A DNA stretch of 64,000 bases from Escherichia phage RB49. This document shows, piece after piece, positions 4,487-21,899 of the stretch; position 1 is the first letter of the stretch; every line of letters begins with the position of its first letter. The translations under genes and the position numbers were made by a program. The stretch lies in sequence record NC_005066.1; one strand, 5' to 3'. The notes below the pieces were generated by a model. It did not search any database. It had not been told where the DNA came from and worked only from the letters and a program-made list of their open reading frames with translations.

Positions 4487-5215
4487 TTACTTGAGTGTGT
4501 GGAATTGGCTATGTTTAGTCTCTCGCACCTTGACAGACCCATCGCGTTTGATATAATAGATCAGTGACTTGAGGGTGTCGTGTACATACGCGTGCGGGAA
4601 ACGCTCTGGATACTTCTTCCAATCTGGAGTATTAACGATCCAGTCGAAAATCCACCACGGGCAGGAGTAGTAACCACGACCGCCACCGATCAAGCAAATG
4701 GTCGGACGGAAGCCAGTAAGATCGCAAAATGAATCAGTGTCATGTGCTGGGGAACGATGTTCTGCTTCGTCAGAGAAAATGTTGGCTACCGGAGATTCCA
4801 CTTTAACTTCCGGTACATCTACAACTTCAATTGTAACTGGTACTGTGTGTGGTTTGGCTTCTTCTACAACTTCAATTGTAATTGGTTCTTCTTTTTGTTC
4901 TGGTTCTTTCATTGCTTCAACCAGAGACGGATCAACTTCGTCGAATACCACTTTATCATCTACGGTGTCTGCTGCCAGAATAAGATCGTTAATACTGGTT
5001 CCTTCTGCCGGAGTTTCTTCTTCCATTTCGGAAGCCAGTTTAGTTAATTCGGTTTCTACGAACTCGATCATGTTCTCTAGTGATAAAGTCTTTTTGACCT
5101 TAATATCAAATTGTTTTGCGTAGTCAGCTAATTCTGTTTTAGCTGTTTTCTGTGCTTCTTTGTCGTCGGACGCCGCAATAGCGCGGAGTTCTTCGAAATA
5201 TTCTTTATCAAACAT
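4487..5215 (-). CDS. inh: Inh-like capsid-associated protein (prohead protease inhibitor homologue, tentative)
   Basis: 242 aa, located between hoc and uvsW as inh is in T4; acidic repetitive N-terminus and a C-terminal PWWIFDWIV motif similar to Hoc WWVFDEIV. Confidence 0.45.
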   Translation of the reverse strand: MFDKEYFEELRAIAASDDKEAQKTAKTELADYAKQFDIKVKKTLSLENMIEFVETELTKLASEMEEETPAEGTSINDLILAADTVDDKVVFDEVDPSLVEAMKEPEQKEEPITIEVVEEAKPHTVPVTIEVVDVPEVKVESPVANIFSDEAEHRSPAHDTDSFCDLTGFRPTICLIGGGRGYYSCPWWIFDWIVNTPDWKKYPERFPHAYVHDTLKSLIYYIKRDGSVKVRETKHSQFHTLK

Positions 5216-5270: not shown

Positions 5271-6788
5271 GTGAGGCTATTCGCTATGCAAGATATTAAA
5301 ATTCACTTTCTGAACTACTCCCATGTTCAAATTGAATGTAGCGATTCAATTTTATTAGAAATGCGAGATTATTTTAGTTTTGAAGTCGAGGGAGCGCGGT
5401 TTCAAAAAAGATTTAAGTATGGTGGATGGGATGGGCGTATTCGTCTTTTAGATTACAACGGAAAGCTGCCAATCGGCCTAACTAAAACCGTGGGAATCTT
5501 CGCTAAAAATATGGGCTATAGCGTATGGGTAGATCCTCGCTTATTCGAAAAAGAACAAGTTACAGAAGAAGAAATTACAAAATGGTGTAATGACTTAGAA
5601 TTATATTCCGGTGCTAACAGGATCACCCCGCACTGGTATCAATCAAAGGCTGTCTTTGAAGGTATTCATCATAAACGCCGTATGTTAGTTTTGCCTACGT
5701 CCGCTGGTAAATCTGCGATTGCTTGTATGTTGTCTCGTTGGTACTTAGAGAACTACGAAGGGAAAGTGCTGATCATCGTTCCTACCACGTCGCTAGTGCT
5801 GCAAATGCGTGATGATTTTGTTGATTATCGCCAGTTTCCGTATGAAGCAATTCATACTATCATGAGCGGTACTAGTAAACACGTAGGTGATCGCCTGATC
5901 GTTGTTAGTACGTGGCAATCAGCATGTAAACAGCCGAGTGAATGGTTCCAGCAATTTGGGATGGTTATTGTTGATGAATGTCACAAGGCCACTGCTAAAA
6001 ACCTGCTAAACATCGTTACTGATATGGATCATTGCCAGTTTAAGATCGGTATGACTGGTTCCCCTCGTGACGGGAAAGCTAACATGATGCAGTATGTCGG
6101 TCTTTTCGGTGATATTTCTAAGATCGTGAGTATTGACCGCCTGATGGAAGAAGGTCAAGTGACGAAACTGAAAATCAACTGTCTTTTCCTTCGTTATACC
6201 GATGAGGAATGTAGCGCGGTTAAGGGTAGAGAATATGCGGAAGAGATCAAGTATATTACGTCTAACCCACGACGTAATAAGTTTGCTTGTAATTTGGCGC
6301 TAAAACTCGCTAAGAAGGGCGAAAACGTATTCCTGATGTTCCGCAATACTAAGCACGGAAAACTTATGTATGATGCGTTACAGAAGGTACACGACAAGGT
6401 TTATTATATTGACGGTGGAGTTAAGACAGAAGAACGTGATGAATTTAAGAAATTAGCGGAAGGGGAAACAGGGATCATTTGCGTTGCATCCTATGGTGTG
6501 TTCTCTACTGGTGTTTCAATTAAGAACTTGCACCATGTTATTTTCGGTCATCCAGTGAAGGAATCAACTATCGTTCGTCAGAGTATCGGTCGTGCATTGC
6601 GTAAACATGGTTCTAAGGATATTGCAACGGTCTGGGATCTTATAGATCATCTGGCGGTGAAGACAAAGAGCAAGAATGCTAAGAAACAGTTTAGCCACCT
6701 TAATTATGCTCTTAAACATGCCCTTGAAAGAATAAAAATTTACAACACCGATCGATTCGAATATGTCACGAAAACCATCGAGATTTAA
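5271..6788 (+). CDS. uvsW: UvsW DNA helicase (SF2, RNA-DNA and branched-DNA helicase)
   Basis: 505 aa; strongly resembles T4 UvsW as recalled (HWYQ, LPTSAGKS Walker A, VDECH DEAD-like box, VASYGVFSTG). Confidence 0.9.
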   Translation: MRLFAMQDIKIHFLNYSHVQIECSDSILLEMRDYFSFEVEGARFQKRFKYGGWDGRIRLLDYNGKLPIGLTKTVGIFAKNMGYSVWVDPRLFEKEQVTEEEITKWCNDLELYSGANRITPHWYQSKAVFEGIHHKRRMLVLPTSAGKSAIACMLSRWYLENYEGKVLIIVPTTSLVLQMRDDFVDYRQFPYEAIHTIMSGTSKHVGDRLIVVSTWQSACKQPSEWFQQFGMVIVDECHKATAKNLLNIVTDMDHCQFKIGMTGSPRDGKANMMQYVGLFGDISKIVSIDRLMEEGQVTKLKINCLFLRYTDEECSAVKGREYAEEIKYITSNPRRNKFACNLALKLAKKGENVFLMFRNTKHGKLMYDALQKVHDKVYYIDGGVKTEERDEFKKLAEGETGIICVASYGVFSTGVSIKNLHHVIFGHPVKESTIVRQSIGRALRKHGSKDIATVWDLIDHLAVKTKSKNAKKQFSHLNYALKHALERIKIYNTDRFEYVTKTIEI

Positions 6789-16390: not shown

Positions 16391-18442
16391 TTACATTTTA
16401 AATTTATCTGGCATTGCGTCTACAGATACCAGATCAGCGATAAGCTGACGTAGAGTTGCCTTATCTGCTTTCTTACGTTCGGTTTTAGCTTCGCTAATGA
16501 AGCTGGAGAAAGACAGGTCAGAAGCAGGTTTAACAACACCTTCACGGATGAATGCATCACCGTCCGCGATCATCTCGCCAGATTCTTGTAATGCTGCCAG
16601 TTCATTTTTGTTCATAATATGTGCCTCAATGTAATAAGTTTCTTGTGAATCCGTCGATGCCGTAGCACGAGTTACCGTATCAAAGGATAACACAACACCG
16701 CGAGGAAGTAAAATCTCGCATTCTTTGTAAGCAAATGCTTTGTTACCTACTGGCAAGACAGGGATGTTTTCCGCGCCAGCAATGGAGAAAGCAACATTGG
16801 CGCCACCTTCACCGCGAGAGCCAGCCATAGAATCAACACCAGCAACGGCACTAGCCACGTTTGCATTCCAGCCGCCAAAAATGTTAGGTGCAAGGGAAGT
16901 GCTCACATAGTTTTTAAAGTAAAACGCTTTTTGCTTACGTGCAGTTTCCCACATTTGCGACCGGAAGTCCATACCACGATACAGAATAGTACCCGGATCA
17001 AGTTTAACGCCATAGTTGGAGAAGGCATTATCCAGTGCATCGCACATCTTGACCAATTCTTCTGGATCTGATATGCCTTCAAACTCTTCCAGCTTGCGGT
17101 CGGTTAGGAAGTTGTTCATATTGATGTATGCTGCATCGGCATATTCGCTCAACACAAAACCTTCCGCGCCTGGCAGATCAAGATCAATATCTGCCATCAT
17201 TTCACCCATGTTGCTAGCAATTGCTTCAAACATACCGGAAGCAACATTACGTAGGGCATCGGTTTTAATCTGGGTGATATGACTACGCAGCATTTCAGCT
17301 TTTACATCTGCTGGCATAGACTGGTCTACTCGATCCATTGCCAGGGCGGTGATCTTGTTTTCGAATACTTCCTCGCTCATGATTTCTTTTAAGCGTTTGA
17401 CCGAGGCTGCGATAACTTCCGCAGACAACGGATCATATTGATCCTGAACTTTTACCAGTTCGCTTACTGCGTATTTTGCATCGGCTTCGCTTTCAAAAAT
17501 AGTACGCATGAAACCATAGCGAGTGATAATATCACTTGTCCAGTCATTCAGAGAACGGGCGGTTGAACGTTCTAAGGCTTGACGGTCAATCAGAGTATTA
17601 AACTGTTTCTTAGGTTCGGCTTCGGTGATATCTTCTTCCGGTTTAAGATTAATTTTTTCTGGATGATTCACATAGTCGCTGTTATAGGTCGCTTGAGTTT
17701 TCAGCATTTCTTCTTTAGTCAAACGAGATTTAGCCGCTACGCGTTGTTCTGCTTCCGCGTTTCGTTCTTCTTCTGACACAAGACTAGCCGCATACGCTTC
17801 ATCTTTAGTCAGAGATTCACCAGTAGCCTTAGATACCCAGCGATCACCTAAATCACTTTCTACTTTAGTGAACAAGGATTCATCAAGTTTAATCCCTTTA
17901 ATCTTATCAATCGCCATCCCGCGACGCTTGACAACAACTAAAGCGATCTTTTTGCTGGTCATTACTTCCTGCTGGAATACTTCAAACTTCGGTGTACGAC
18001 GCACCAAACGCTCTATAACGCGCTTAACCAGTTCGGTCTTACCTTTCATGCGGGATACGTTAAAACGGAACATAACAGCGTCTAATTGCGATTTACGGGC
18101 TGTTTCCATAACCACATCAAAAGCACTTGCCATGACTGCAATCGGGTTATCGCCTAGACCATTTTTAAGCTGTACAATACGACCGCTTTTGTTCATTTCG
18201 CACAGTACAACATGTGCGGTCTTGTCACCCATACGAATGATTTTAGGTGTTTTGTTGGTGAAGTTACAAAGACGGACAATCACATCTTTATCGCGTGTCT
18301 GTACTGCAAAAAGCTGTTTAGGATTCTGCTTAGGCTTTAAGCACTGTACCGGAGCAATACTGCCAAAGTTTTCTTCCTCTTCCGTCAACAGCCATTTCTC
18401 GAAAGATTCAATCATTAGATCGTCGATTTCTAAGTTAAACAT
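16391..18442 (-). CDS. alt: Alt ADP-ribosyltransferase (packaged, modifies host RNA polymerase)
   Basis: 683 aa (T4 Alt is about the same); C-terminal ART motifs LYRG, YVSTS, ECEILLPRG. Confidence 0.8.
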   Translation of the reverse strand: MFNLEIDDLMIESFEKWLLTEEEENFGSIAPVQCLKPKQNPKQLFAVQTRDKDVIVRLCNFTNKTPKIIRMGDKTAHVVLCEMNKSGRIVQLKNGLGDNPIAVMASAFDVVMETARKSQLDAVMFRFNVSRMKGKTELVKRVIERLVRRTPKFEVFQQEVMTSKKIALVVVKRRGMAIDKIKGIKLDESLFTKVESDLGDRWVSKATGESLTKDEAYAASLVSEEERNAEAEQRVAAKSRLTKEEMLKTQATYNSDYVNHPEKINLKPEEDITEAEPKKQFNTLIDRQALERSTARSLNDWTSDIITRYGFMRTIFESEADAKYAVSELVKVQDQYDPLSAEVIAASVKRLKEIMSEEVFENKITALAMDRVDQSMPADVKAEMLRSHITQIKTDALRNVASGMFEAIASNMGEMMADIDLDLPGAEGFVLSEYADAAYINMNNFLTDRKLEEFEGISDPEELVKMCDALDNAFSNYGVKLDPGTILYRGMDFRSQMWETARKQKAFYFKNYVSTSLAPNIFGGWNANVASAVAGVDSMAGSRGEGGANVAFSIAGAENIPVLPVGNKAFAYKECEILLPRGVVLSFDTVTRATASTDSQETYYIEAHIMNKNELAALQESGEMIADGDAFIREGVVKPASDLSFSSFISEAKTERKKADKATLRQLIADLVSVDAMPDKFKM

Positions 18443-18485
18443 TTTATATCCTCTAGTTGATAACCTATAAACCTATATTTATGAA

Positions 18486-18507
18486 AAGGGGGCTTAACGC
18501 CCCCTTT
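18486..18507 (-). terminator. Rho-independent terminator
   Basis: Hairpin gggggc-ttaa-cgccccc with a T-run on the minus strand after the 18509..18721 gene. Confidence 0.55.
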
Positions 18508-18508
18508 A

Positions 18509-18721
18509 TTATAATGCACCATCGAGCAATTGCTCTAAGGTGTATCCTGAATAGTCTTTTTCAATCAGGGTATATTTTCCTACTCGTTTAATCCAGCCAC
18601 GCATTTCAACGTATTCTGCGTAGTTGATGGTGCGAGTTGTTCCATCTTCTAGCAAAGCAGTACCGATTTCGTTAATGCGGTCATAAGTTACGTCGGTAAT
18701 GATGATTTCGATGTTAGCCAT
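18509..18721 (-). CDS. Hypothetical small early protein
   Basis: 70 aa ORF preceded by a promoter cassette and GGAG RBS. Confidence 0.55.
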   Translation of the reverse strand: MANIEIIITDVTYDRINEIGTALLEDGTTRTINYAEYVEMRGWIKRVGKYTLIEKDYSGYTLEQLLDGAL

Positions 18722-18786
18722 TTGATACTCCTTAGTAGTTCGTTTCGGTATGGGTGTATTATGATATACACCCTCTGTTATGTCAA
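18722..18786 (-). promoter_or_regulatory. Early promoter cassette (sigma70-like -35 TTGACA / -10 cATAAT plus conserved leader)
   Basis: Minus strand reads TTGACA-17 bp-CATAAT-ACACCCATACCGAAACGAA-GGAG-ATG; the same architecture recurs more than 20 times in the window. Confidence 0.6.
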
Positions 18787-18792
18787 CAACTT

Positions 18793-18972
18793 TTAGAACA
18801 TTTTTGAAATTAATTCTGCTTTGATTTCGCAGAGAACATCTAAAGATTTCTCGTCACCTGCTTTTGCGGCTTCTGTTTGCATTTTTGAAATGGCTTCAAT
18901 GTCAGTGCAATTATAAGCCGCTTGAACTTTAGCGATTGCGATGATTGCCGATTCGATGGTTAAGTGTTTCAT
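18793..18972 (-). CDS. Hypothetical small early protein
   Basis: 59 aa ORF (MKHLTIESAI...), hand-translated; promoter cassette and RBS upstream. Confidence 0.45.
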   Translation of the reverse strand: MKHLTIESAIIAIAKVQAAYNCTDIEAISKMQTEAAKAGDEKSLDVLCEIKAELISKMF

Positions 18973-19033
18973 GTTTGATTCTCCTTTCGTTTCGGTATGG
19001 GTGCATTATAGGGGATCGGTGACCCCCTGTCAA
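18973..19033 (-). promoter_or_regulatory. Early promoter cassette with palindromic spacer
   Basis: TTGACA, spacer containing GGGGTCACCGATCCCC, TATAAT-like box, conserved leader. Confidence 0.6.
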
Positions 19034-19040
19034 CAACTTT

Positions 19041-19595
19041 TTAGTTATTTTTTAATTGTTCATCTTGCAATAATGCAATCACATGCTGGCGATGTTCTTC
19101 CGATTGAGACACACCGAAAAAGTTTGTTTTGTAGAAATACTCTAATCGGTCTTCTCGTGTGCTCTCTTCCATCATGATCGCGGGTAGTCCGAGATTTCGG
19201 AAACGTCGCTTTTCTGCTGGCGTAAAATCACTGTAATACAACATAGAATCATCATTACAAGCAATGCTAAACTCATCCTTCATAAAGGAGAATATTGCGT
19301 TTAAACGCTGTTTACCGTCCACGATTTCGATCTCATAGCGAGAGCCATCATCAATCTTAGCCATTGCGATAGCACCAACCGGAAAATCATTAATCAGGTT
19401 TTCGATAAACATACGTTTGTTTTCGGTGTCCCATACTAAAGGACGCTGATAATCTGGGTTCATGTTGATATAGCCATCTTCTAACCATGCTTCATAAACA
19501 GAGATAACAAAGTTTTTAGTATTGGTATAGTAACGGCGTTTAGGCGTTAAACGGTTCATGTTATAGTCTCCTGAATGGATCATCACGTAAATCAA
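19041..19595 (-). CDS. DUF262 / ParB-like nuclease-NTPase domain protein
   Basis: 184 aa; DYQRPLVWD and VDGKQRL motifs match the DUF262 signatures (IPxFQRxYxW, DGQQR) known from GmrSD-type proteins. Confidence 0.6.
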   Translation of the reverse strand: MIYVMIHSGDYNMNRLTPKRRYYTNTKNFVISVYEAWLEDGYINMNPDYQRPLVWDTENKRMFIENLINDFPVGAIAMAKIDDGSRYEIEIVDGKQRLNAIFSFMKDEFSIACNDDSMLYYSDFTPAEKRRFRNLGLPAIMMEESTREDRLEYFYKTNFFGVSQSEEHRQHVIALLQDEQLKNN

Positions 19596-19890
19596 TATCT
19601 TTTAAGAACTCATCCCATGAATGGCGGATATTGTTCTTAATTCTCCAGATAAGAGCAGGGATTGAACGCTCTCCCATCTGGAAGTATGGATCATATGATC
19701 CGTATGCCCAATATGCTACTACAATTCCACAATCAGCGCAATAGTATTCTATTTCACTTGCTGGCGACCAAAGTCCATCAATATGATCGGTGATCTTGCT
19801 TTCGATGTTATGGCTATGACAATCAGGGCAACGGATGCAATGACCTTGTTTATCGTAATTTGACGTTAGCGAATACTTAAACAATCTCAT
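19561..19890 (-). CDS. Zinc-ribbon protein
   Basis: 109 aa; CIRCPDCHSH ... YCADCG cysteine pairs; overlaps both neighbours (operon). Confidence 0.5.
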   Translation of the reverse strand: MRLFKYSLTSNYDKQGHCIRCPDCHSHNIESKITDHIDGLWSPASEIEYYCADCGIVVAYWAYGSYDPYFQMGERSIPALIWRIKNNIRHSWDEFLKDIDLRDDPFRRL

Positions 19891-20606
19891 TATAGATCCT
19901 TATTTGCTTCAAATACTGCCTTTGCGAATCCTCGCGGGGTAAGTGACCTGATAGTCTTTGTTTTCGTTCCTTTCCCGCCTAGCTTAGAATGCTGTTTACT
20001 GTACCCTTTATTAATCTGCAAAGGTTTCTTTTCTGGCATTATAAAGCCTTGTCCGGTCCATAAGCAAGTCTTTTTCGGGTACATATCACGGGCGGCAATA
20101 TACTCAGGAAAAGTAGGATGTTTATCATCTTCCGGCAAATAACCGCCATATTCCCACGGATGGAACATATAATCAGGCTTACGCCACATGCTAGAGATAA
20201 CGCTTACAGGATTCTCTATCATGTAGGGAACTCCTATCCATTCACCCAAATAAGCGGTTATTTTAGCTGCCCTTACATCATGAACTTGAATCAATGGTCC
20301 TTGTTCTAGTTTCTTTCGTTCAAAGTGCGCAGCGCCACTAACAGCTAAATTGGTGCACGGTGGGAATGCAAAGATAATATCCGGTTTCCCCCATTCAAGG
20401 TCCATTGCTCTTTCCAGCCAGTTCAAATCAATCCAGGTGTTTACATAGGTAATGTTTGGATGTTCAAATCTGGTATTATATTTTTTGTATGTACCGTGGT
20501 CGCCATCGTCAGCATTAAAGCAGATCACCTTATGACCCGCTTTAGCCCATTCTAACCCCATTATCCCCGACCCGTCAAAGTTGCAGAATATTAATTTTTG
20601 TTTCAT
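19890..20606 (-). CDS. Compact C5-cytosine methyltransferase-like protein
   Basis: 238 aa; motif I-like FDGSGIMG, motif IV-like FPPCTNLAVSGA (Pro-Cys catalytic dipeptide), motif VI-like MIENPV at canonical spacings; only about 100 aa remain where a target-recognition domain would sit. Confidence 0.45.
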   Translation of the reverse strand: MKQKLIFCNFDGSGIMGLEWAKAGHKVICFNADDGDHGTYKKYNTRFEHPNITYVNTWIDLNWLERAMDLEWGKPDIIFAFPPCTNLAVSGAAHFERKKLEQGPLIQVHDVRAAKITAYLGEWIGVPYMIENPVSVISSMWRKPDYMFHPWEYGGYLPEDDKHPTFPEYIAARDMYPKKTCLWTGQGFIMPEKKPLQINKGYSKQHSKLGGKGTKTKTIRSLTPRGFAKAVFEANKDL

Positions 20607-20848
20607 ATACGCCCCTTTAATCCAACACAGATTTTAGAAGGTTCTTTGCCGTGCCACATTAAGTAAAGTCCGTTAATGCGGCCTTGTTTTGTATATGATT
20701 CTTTTCTGATCTTCTTATAGTGTCGTGTTTCCTCTACCGATTGTTTAGAATACCAATCATAAAGGAAGAGGAACAAAGGCCAACCATTAGCAACCTTAAT
20801 GCAGTTATTCAAAAATTCCTTATTTCGTTTAATTAATTTTCTTTTCAC
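20603..20848 (-). CDS. Hypothetical protein
   Basis: 81 aa ORF, overlaps neighbours by 4 nt on each side. Confidence 0.45.
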   Translation of the reverse strand: MKRKLIKRNKEFLNNCIKVANGWPLFLFLYDWYSKQSVEETRHYKKIRKESYTKQGRINGLYLMWHGKEPSKICVGLKGRI

Positions 20849-21096
20849 GCTGCCCCCATTGGTTTGATAGTAACAGAATCTAAAAGACCTTTGTTAGCCA
20901 GTTCGCGGCAAGTTTTCAGATCCGCAACTTCCCAGCCAGCCGCAATCAGGTTATCAATGAGGCTGTTAGCAACTTCTTCGCTCATGAAAGAGCACTGTTT
21001 GCCGATGGTGTAGCGTACACGCTGTAATTTCAGTTTACGGAAGCCTTTAACGTTCAGGTCTTTAGCGATTTTCTTTGCGGTTTCGATGTTAGCCAT
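20845..21096 (-). CDS. Hypothetical protein, first gene of the operon
   Basis: 83 aa ORF with promoter cassette and GGAGAATC RBS upstream. Confidence 0.5.
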   Translation of the reverse strand: MANIETAKKIAKDLNVKGFRKLKLQRVRYTIGKQCSFMSEEVANSLIDNLIAAGWEVADLKTCRELANKGLLDSVTIKPMGAA

Positions 21097-21165
21097 TGTT
21101 TGATTCTCCTAAGTGGTATCTCGTCTTGATGGTTGTATTGTAGGGGAGTTATCCTCCCCTGTCAA
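21097..21165 (-). promoter_or_regulatory. Early promoter cassette with palindromic spacer
   Basis: TTGACA then GGGGAGGATAACTCCCC palindrome; heads the 21096 down to 19041 operon. Confidence 0.55.
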
Positions 21166-21179
21166 CACTTTTTATAAAA

Positions 21180-21347
21180 TTATTTGTTAATTTCTGGTGC
21201 GTTGCTAGGATAGTAACCTTCTTTAACTCCGAGGTATTTCGCAACCATCCCTACAATCTTCTGTGCTACTACAATGTCAAATTTCAGATAATCTTCGCCG
21301 TGGGTTTCAACGATATATGCTTCACATGCTGCTTTAGTCTCGAACAT
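21180..21347 (-). CDS. Hypothetical small protein, duplicate of 25506..25673
   Basis: 55 aa (MFETKAACEAYIVETHGEDYLKFDIVVAQKIVGMVAKYLGVKEGYYPSNAPEINK), near-identical in DNA and protein to the ORF at 25506..25673. Confidence 0.55.
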   Translation of the reverse strand: MFETKAACEAYIVETHGEDYLKFDIVVAQKIVGMVAKYLGVKEGYYPSNAPEINK

Positions 21348-21350
21348 TTT

Positions 21351-21409
21351 GATTCTCCTATTTCGTTTCGGTATGTGTGTATTATAGGGGATCTCCCGAT
21401 CCCCGTCAA
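21351..21409 (-). promoter_or_regulatory. Early promoter cassette with palindromic spacer
   Basis: TTGACg-GGGATCGGGAGATCCCC-TATAAT-conserved leader. Confidence 0.6.
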
Positions 21410-21422
21410 CAACTTTTTTAGA

Positions 21423-21899
21423 TTATTTGCACCACACTGTAATTTTCTTATCATGTTGGTAGTGAATCCATCGAATATCATCTTTATCAATCATGACAGT
21501 AACATACCCATTTACTAGTGATTTGTCAAAACGGTTATGTAACAGTGCAATATATTGAAAGAATGGTTCTTTTGTATTTGAATATATTCCCTTACCATCA
21601 AACGTCATGACATTTTTGTGAACTTTAAATTCATTACGAAGAACAGCCGTCATTGTCCCGTCTTCATTAGTTTTGAGTTTTAATTCGGATTCTTTGTAAA
21701 AATATGCGTCACGGGCTTTACTTTCTTCCCCGTCTTGTACTCTTACTTCACTAGCATAATCACACTGATAGGTCTTATCTACATTTTCGATCTTTTCTTG
21801 TGTCATATCAAAAAGCGGTGCGACCTTTTTCTTGGCCGCGTGTGCTACGTTGGTCATGGACAGTGCTGCAACAACCGCAATAGCAATAATCTTCTTCAT
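21423..21899 (-). CDS. Secreted/periplasmic hypothetical protein
   Basis: 158 aa; N-terminal signal peptide MKKIIAIAVVAALSMTNVAHA. Confidence 0.55.
   Translation of the reverse strand: MKKIIAIAVVAALSMTNVAHAAKKKVAPLFDMTQEKIENVDKTYQCDYASEVRVQDGEESKARDAYFYKESELKLKTNEDGTMTAVLRNEFKVHKNVMTFDGKGIYSNTKEPFFQYIALLHNRFDKSLVNGYVTVMIDKDDIRWIHYQHDKKITVWCK

Follow-up and report, generated by a model that had tools for sequence, protein, structure and literature searches.

Neighbours or partners: a Dcm-like methylase gene beside zinc-ribbon and DUF262 genes in an early cluster of Escherichia phage RB49

Does a phage operon that packs a small cytosine methyltransferase gene against genes for a zinc-ribbon protein and a DUF262 protein encode one functional module, or a set of unrelated accessory genes? 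The question is raised by five minus-strand genes at positions 19041 to 21165 of a 64,000-nucleotide stretch of Escherichia phage RB49 (NC_005066.1), hereafter referred to as the window. The original prediction, made from the sequence without database searches, assigned a C5-cytosine methyltransferase (C5-MTase), a zinc ribbon and a DUF262 domain to three of the products, and proposed a split DNA-modification or anti-restriction system of a kind it did not recognise. The three domain assignments were right, while the proposed system found no support. Nor is the methylase unfamiliar, as it belongs to a very common and already annotated orphan family with an experimentally studied homologue. At the loci examined, the putative partners co-locate only in Krischvirus, and hence do not form a conserved module. 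We consider it quite probable that the locus is one early transcription unit of ordinary accessory genes, in which a known Dcm-like methylase stands beside unrelated DUF262 and zinc-ribbon proteins.

The region 18400-21400 shares 97-98% identity with LF73P4, FL20, TB34, GEC-3S and ~55 further genomes, which places it in Krischvirus. The five open reading frames (ORFs) lie where they had been predicted, and GEC-3S, TB34 and kaaroe carry matching annotations. Near-identical GenBank genomes already name the genes of interest 'Dcm', 'putative C-5 cytosine DNA methylase' and 'DUF262 domain protein'.

A compact Dcm-like methyltransferase

The third gene of the cluster (19890..20606, minus strand) encodes a 238-aa protein, predicted to be a compact orphan Dcm-like C5-cytosine DNA methyltransferase. 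In a profile search, this protein matched phrog_757, 'DNA methyltransferase', end to end (residues 1-237, E 7.4e-90), and it shares 55-64% identity with many members of that family, usually annotated as 'Dcm' or 'Dcm-like C5 cytosine methyltransferase'. Its length falls within the 200-260 aa of the family, and it carries the C-terminal signature LGGK..KTKxIRSLTPRGFA, of which LGGK..KTKxIRSLTPR is invariant in 37 homologues. Members of this family are abundant: 7,310 homologues were found in a large protein collection, nearly all of 225-250 aa, an exhaustive search yielded 1,139 clusters at 50% identity, and phrog_757 is carried by 1,519 of 50,697 phage records (~3%). Carriers include Drexlerviridae, Dhillonvirus, Webervirus, Vequintavirus and Phapecoctavirus.

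The catalytic motifs quoted by the original prediction were all located, namely FDGSGIMG at residues 10-17, FPPCTNLAVSGA at residues 81-92 and MIENPV at residues 129-134. Motif I (FxGxG) sits at the first beta-strand/loop of the Rossmann fold, and both the Pro-Cys of motif IV and the Glu-Asn-Val/Pro of motif VI are present. Invariant across the 37 homologues are F10-G12-S13-G14 of motif I, P82-P83-C84, E131-N132-P133 and K178, the last being part of a K177-K178 pair in the RB49 protein. The AlphaFold model (predicted local distance difference test, pLDDT, 91.6; predicted template modelling score, pTM, 0.90) displays the C5-MTase catalytic fold, with a Rossmann core for binding S-adenosylmethionine (AdoMet) and motifs I, IV and VI in place. 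Its best structural matches are DNMT3B and other DNA C5-MTases, and a Foldseek search against viral models returned phage cytosine methylases. The end-to-end phrog_757 match and the fold, together with matches of 9 of the 37 family members to the Pfam DNA methylase profile PF00145 at E<=0.01 (best E 1.3e-6), support the assignment. We therefore regard the family as a predicted divergent offshoot of the C5-cytosine DNA methyltransferase superfamily.

The protein was also noted to leave almost no room for a target-recognition domain (TRD), and this was correct. The small domain with TRD and motif IX that would lie between motifs VIII and X is absent from the 238-aa protein. In its place, ~45 residues separate a motif VIII-like KKTxxW segment from the C-terminal helix, and the variable part of this slot comprises ~20 residues (189-208) across 100 full-length cluster representatives. 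The tiny slot is a trait of the whole Dcm-like family. In two BFVD hits from uncultured phages, A0A6J5SE15 and A0A6J5NPY6, a Dcm-like domain of 25-28% identity is apparently fused to other sequence, giving proteins of 1,100-1,400 aa with a helicase/UvrB-like annotation.

By analogy with the chemistry of C5-MTases, Cys84 of the PPC motif would attack C6 of a flipped-out cytosine and Glu131 of the ENP motif would protonate N3, while the methyl group of AdoMet would pass to C5. Most likely, the Krischvirus enzyme would act early in infection and methylate few sites, with CCWGG-like sequences as a possible target. Such sparse methylation would shield the phage from some restriction enzymes, as orphan methylases classically do, with sensing by retron Eco1 as the price.

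DNA methylation and the retron trigger

Evidence on what such an enzyme does comes from a homologue. The protein bas06_0055 of phage KarlJaspers/Bas06 (236 aa) is 55% identical over its full length to the 238-aa protein (E 3e-92), and phage K42, whose genome is 95% identical to that of KarlJaspers, has been studied with retron Ec86 (10.1101/2023.08.16.553469). In that preprint, the 711-bp 'dcm' gene was disrupted in all K42 mutants escaping the retron, and its expression was toxic only in the presence of retron Ec86. Liquid chromatography-mass spectrometry further showed that 5-methylcytosine (5mC) in the multicopy single-stranded DNA (msDNA) was raised by wild-type K42 Dcm and not by a C82A/E128A/K175A/K176A mutant (10.1101/2023.08.16.553469). 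The four mutated residues align exactly with the PPC, ENP and KK motifs, corresponding to C84, E131, K177 and K178 of the 238-aa protein. Phage Dcm has later been treated as an accepted trigger of Retron-Eco1 (PMC12640716). Thus, the methylase family already has a published role, as trigger of retron Eco1/Ec86, and we predict that Krischviruses should be sensed by retron Eco1 via their Dcm-like gene.

For Krischvirus DNA itself, data are available from TB34, which encodes a Dcm-like protein with 98% identity to that of the window. High-performance liquid chromatography (HPLC) with mass spectrometry revealed no detectable modified nucleosides in TB34 DNA, and BrxU, which cleaves 5mC DNA, left TB34 uncut both in vivo and in vitro (PMC13390438). 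The literature also uses RB49 as a phage with unmodified cytosine. A lack of cytosine methylation in phage DNA, which the original prediction had named as evidence against its proposal, is thereby borne out in part: dense methylation is out, while sparse site-specific methylation is compatible with the TB34 result. Any methylation of TB34 DNA must then be sparse. The window contains 28 CCWGG sites in its 64 kb, so a CCWGG-specific enzyme would modify ~0.2% of cytosines and would therefore escape detection by bulk HPLC. Literature searches found no mapped methylome for the RB49-like phage family.

The counts of CCWGG were considered as a clue to specificity (28 observed, 53-62 expected) and this was dropped, as the composition-matched control GGWCC was similarly depleted (35 observed, 54-62 expected). 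Other palindromes of the window gave mixed counts, with strong depletion of GGCC (27 observed, 69-103 expected) and CCNGG (35 observed, ~98-103 expected), and no depletion of GATC against the Markov expectation (347 observed, 333 expected).

We also asked whether the operon accounts for the modification of phage SAP, in which hypermodified cytosines (5-hydroxymethylcytosine, 5hmC, and glucosyl-5hmC) have been reported. TB34 is unmodified, and a published analysis of single-nucleotide polymorphisms gave no leads. The difference does not map to the operon, whose coding sequences are identical in the two phages. Within a 6-kb region, SAP is set apart from TB34 only by a 79-bp tandem duplication of a promoter cassette and by homopolymer indels of 1 nt in further such cassettes. 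The duplication lies just downstream of the DUF262 gene (SAP stretch 2076-2154, equivalent to window positions ~18973-19040).

Several points tell against the reading that we favour. The Pfam matches anticipated by the original prediction were obtained for DUF262 (PF03235, E 5.8e-20) and not for the 238-aa protein, for which PF00145 remained sub-threshold (E 0.059, 13.2 bits vs a 22-bit cutoff, residues 10-93 only). A profile built from the Dcm-like alignment found no match among PDB sequences even at E<=10. Formation of 5mC has been shown solely for the 55%-identical K42 homologue, on msDNA, and the activity and target of the Krischvirus enzyme are drawn by analogy with it. The CCWGG specificity of K42 Dcm is itself unmapped, as it was deduced from analogy with host Dcm and from mutation of an msDNA motif (10.1101/2023.08.16.553469). 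The BASEL study saw no simple link between phage methyltransferase genes of the Dcm-like kind and restriction resistance (PMC8594841), so any benefit to the phage is putative.

Finally, the TB34 null would also fit an inactive or non-DNA-directed enzyme. The Dcm-like protein might accordingly not be a double-stranded DNA methyltransferase acting on the phage genome, and could instead use another substrate (single-stranded or hairpin DNA, host DNA, or RNA as does Dnmt2) or serve as a catalytically silent AdoMet- or DNA-binding factor. We judge this alternative rather unlikely. The catalytic motifs are all invariant across the family, which favours catalysis, the best structural matches are DNA C5-MTases, and sparse methylation would have evaded bulk HPLC.

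The DUF262 and zinc-ribbon neighbours

The last gene of the cluster (19041..19559, minus strand) encodes a stand-alone DUF262 protein of 172 aa with a ParB/Srx-fold nucleoside triphosphate (NTP)-binding domain. In addition to PF03235 (GmrSD_N/DUF262), it matched phrog_1583. Both motifs quoted by the original prediction, DYQRPLVWD and VDGKQRL, are present, and YQR, DGKQR and NFxGVxQSxEH are invariant. The N-terminal ParB/Srx NTPase domain with its DGQQR-type motif was therefore recognised, and it superposes on the N-domains of BrxU and SspE. All PDB chains matched by the protein are covered by the alignment in their N-domains only. A C-terminal DUF1524/His-Me (HNH) nuclease domain is absent, both as a fusion and as an adjacent gmrD gene, as the protein stops at 172 aa and the next genes encode 59 and 70 aa. 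The 172-aa protein is thus not a member of GmrSD.

Sequence comparison instead assigns it to a separate family of stand-alone phage and prophage proteins of ~170 aa, with members in 299 phage records. This family required an alignment to be recovered, as a single-sequence word-indexed search returned 2 clusters only. DUF262-only members were found in T4-like phages (Morganella Mm5, RB43, KP15/Slopekvirus, Karamvirus, and Yersinia, Pectobacterium and Pantoea phages). Many enterobacterial genomes carry them as well, and the examples examined there map to prophage accessory regions beside recET, kil, exc and int.

Positions of this kind, accessory or moron-like in the early regions of T4-like phages and in lambdoid prophages, might suggest that the DUF262 protein acts as an effector in its own right, without the methylase. 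In that case, its ParB/Srx fold would cut or nick DNA or modify nucleotides in an NTP-dependent manner, and would help the phage to take over the host or to exclude its competitors. The PADLOC profiles NsnA and PD-T4-2_A match the protein, and nuclease or ATPase activity has been reported for some ParB/Srx-fold proteins. Against this stand the lack of any nuclease motif or second domain in the protein and the fact that the defence-system profiles reach only its N-terminal domain. We consider this explanation unlikely and favour a separate NTP-binding domain that has no effector domain attached.

The zinc-ribbon gene (19561..19890, minus strand) encodes a 109-aa protein with cysteines C18/C21/C24 and C51/C54 in a CxxCxxC...CxxC arrangement. 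It matched phrog_2993 and, weakly, the Pfam family Zn_Ribbon_TF (E 5.6e-4). NCBIfam offered it only weak sub-threshold zinc-ribbon matches and returned no match for the other four of the five cluster proteins. Homologues occur in JenK1-like phages, in Proteus and Klebsiella siphoviruses and in Felixounavirus, phrog_2993 is carried by 291 phage records, and the zinc-ribbon protein is a third independent family.

Do these families travel together? The three genes differ in their phylogenetic distribution. Profile searches covered every ORF within +-6 kb of an anchor gene at 107 IMG/VR loci. Recurrent co-location of methyltransferase, zinc-ribbon and DUF262 genes in unrelated genomes was not found among the 107 loci. 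A DUF262 or zinc-ribbon gene accompanied the Dcm-like gene at 1/80 Dcm-anchored loci, these being the best 80 of at least 589 Dcm loci, and that locus is from Krischvirus. Conversely, a Dcm-like or zinc-ribbon gene was found at two of the 27 DUF262-anchored loci, both from Krischvirus. The neighbours of DUF262 differ in Mm5, RB43, KP15, a Salmonella prophage and a Citrobacter element, with no Dcm-like or zinc-ribbon homologue nearby. Neither a DUF262 nor a zinc-ribbon gene adjoins the Dcm-like genes of tonijn, KarlJaspers and metagenomic contigs.

Several candidate partners were inspected and rejected. In RB43 and KP15, DUF262 is preceded by genes of ~110 aa that are no homologues of the zinc ribbon, and in KP15 and Mm5 it is followed by genes of ~300 aa from unrelated families without a Pfam match. 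Near DUF262 in the Citrobacter element lie proteins of 234-246 aa, none of them Dcm-like. In the same 85-kb element, a 78-aa ORF (stretch 4768-5004) with a CPxCG zinc-ribbon-like signature shares 4 nt with the beginning of the DUF262-only gene, and no homology to the Krischvirus zinc-ribbon protein could be detected for it. A related locus harbours a Lar_restr_allev gene a few kb downstream.

A competing proposal holds that the three genes form a functional module. In it, 5mC deposited by the Dcm-like enzyme would expose the phage to Type IV nucleases of the GmrSD/BrxU/McrBC type, and the DUF262 protein, possibly helped by the zinc ribbon, would serve as a decoy, binding the DUF262 NTPase domain of such nucleases and blocking them. 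The decoy idea is consistent with the retention of the invariant NTP-binding motifs and with the superposition on BrxU and SspE. ParB-type N-domains, moreover, dimerise upon NTP binding. About 55-60 Krischvirus genomes keep the genes together, in a single early operon with tight translational packing, and an interaction internal to Krischvirus is compatible with the co-occurrence test, whose sampling of Dcm loci also counts on this side. BrxU, furthermore, recognises 5mC (PMC13390438).

In addition, a Salmonella enterica prophage carries a different compact DNA methyltransferase, of 157 aa (phrog_954, motifs ILDVCCGS and DPPH), 466 bp downstream of its DUF262-only gene. The prophage is lambdoid, and this gene (prophage stretch 5982-6455) belongs to its accessory region with recET, kil, exc and int. 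We rejected the pairing as a revival of the linkage, as it recurs in 0/27 viral DUF262 loci.

Other observations speak against the module. Co-occurrence outside Krischvirus was not found at the loci examined, 79/80 Dcm-like genes have no DUF262 gene nearby, and most DUF262-only genes lie in phages without a nearby Dcm-like gene. Even within Krischvirus, kaaroe and FL04 have an extra 59-aa gene that splits the zinc-ribbon gene from the DUF262 gene (kaaroe stretch 1461-1640, FL04 stretch 1460-1639), with a 4-nt overlap with each neighbour and no family match. Purified TB34 DNA was not a BrxU substrate in vitro, so there would be little 5mC to protect. On balance, we find the module very improbable.

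We give still less credence to an extension of this idea, a Krischvirus 'modify and shield' cassette. Here, the Dcm-like enzyme would deposit 5mC or feed a further modification (compare the 5hmC and glucosyl-5hmC of SAP), and the DUF262 and zinc-ribbon proteins would form the decoy against GmrSD/BrxU-type nucleases. If true, this would be a self-contained cassette built from a defence-protein domain. Under the explanation that we favour, five small, independently acquired accessory genes would be packed between two promoter-early-stem-loop cassettes, and the adjacency of zinc ribbon and DUF262 to the methylase would be a lineage-specific accident of early-gene shuffling.

Cluster layout and comparison with known systems

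The cluster is located immediately upstream of an Alt-like ADP-ribosyltransferase gene. A promoter cassette had been proposed upstream of the five genes, and it is a real early promoter of the sigma-70 type (21137..21165, minus strand; read from 21165 to 21137). It consists of TTGACA and TACAAT separated by 17 nt that contain a GGGGAG..CTCCCC stem-loop, and a homologous promoter is annotated in GEC-3S. The first gene (g83, 20845..21096, minus strand) encodes an 83-aa protein and the second (g81, 20603..20848, minus strand) an 81-aa basic protein with a GTG start. Their only matches are to PHROGs without assigned function, phrog_14908 and phrog_7065, respectively. We also observed a weak PADLOC match of g83 (residues 12-75, E 2.6e-5) to the C-terminus of RT_UG35, the UG35 defence reverse transcriptase.

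Successive genes overlap at their junctions, through GTGA between g83 and g81, ATGA between g81 and dcm, and TAATG between dcm and the zinc-ribbon gene. For the DUF262 gene, the original prediction of a 184-aa product starting at TTG 19595 gives way to a 172-aa product starting at ATG 19559, as the TTG start is unlike the public annotations. An AGGAGA Shine-Dalgarno motif stands 7 nt before this ATG, which follows the zinc-ribbon stop codon by 1 nt and is the start annotated in GEC-3S, TB34 and kaaroe. This ATG is most likely the true start, and the 35-nt overlap with the zinc-ribbon gene implied by TTG 19595 is therefore probably not real.

The cluster ends directly past the DUF262 gene at the next early promoter of the same type (TTGACA-17-TATAAT, 19005..19033, minus strand), which drives a 59-aa gene and is the cassette found in tandem duplicate in SAP. 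Similar cassettes also flank adjacent small genes, and the 59-aa and 70-aa genes downstream have their own promoters. Past these two genes lies the first downstream intrinsic terminator (GGGGGC-GTTAA-GCCCCC-TTTT, 18484..18504, minus strand). Its homologous site is annotated as a terminator in GEC-3S, and from its sequence it is the probable 3' end of read-through transcripts.

On the other side of the cluster, a 158-aa ORF (21423-21899, minus strand) encodes an N-terminal signal peptide (MKKIIAIAVVAALSMTNVAHA), has promoter-like sites upstream and displays no Pfam or PHROG match. The syntenic position in GEC-3S, TB34 and kaaroe lacks this ORF, and a 55-aa gene is directly followed there by a 93-aa gene. 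The ORF looks like a strain-specific insertion flanked by promoter cassettes.

We take the TTGACA/stem-loop/TAnAAT cassettes to be the PeSL (promoter-early stem-loop) elements of RB49/Phi1-type phages, reportedly described in RB49/Phi1 by Arbiol et al. in 2010. As in those phages, such a cassette flanks every small early gene or gene group here, and both duplication of a cassette and gene insertions are seen between strains in the present region.

The DUF262 protein resembles the Type IV enzymes of the GmrSD family and their relatives (BrxU 7P9K, SspE 6JIV, DndI 9JFL) in its N-terminal DUF262 ParB/Srx NTPase domain, with a DGQQR-type motif (here DGKQR) and YQR. It differs from them in consisting of 172 aa only, with no DUF1524/HNH nuclease or other effector domain, and in belonging to its own family of ~170 aa. 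Classical C5-MTases of PF00145 (M.HhaI, M.HaeIII, E. coli Dcm and the catalytic domain of DNMT3A/B) share 12-17% identity with the 238-aa protein. Enzymes of the M.HhaI type are ~90-100 residues longer, and the 238-aa protein lacks the small domain, the TRD and motif IX. DNMT3, with a TRD that is also minimal, is closest to it in compactness.

The nearest known counterpart is the Dcm of KarlJaspers (bas06_0055) and K42. Its carrier is a siphovirus of the Drexlerviridae, whereas RB49 is a T4-like myovirus, the neighbouring genes differ, and the Krischvirus protein is known from sequence and model. The two proteins are nevertheless alike in size (236 vs 238 aa), in their identical catalytic residues, in having no TRD domain, in their early or accessory position and in their GenBank names, 'Dcm' and 'putative C-5 cytosine DNA methylase'.

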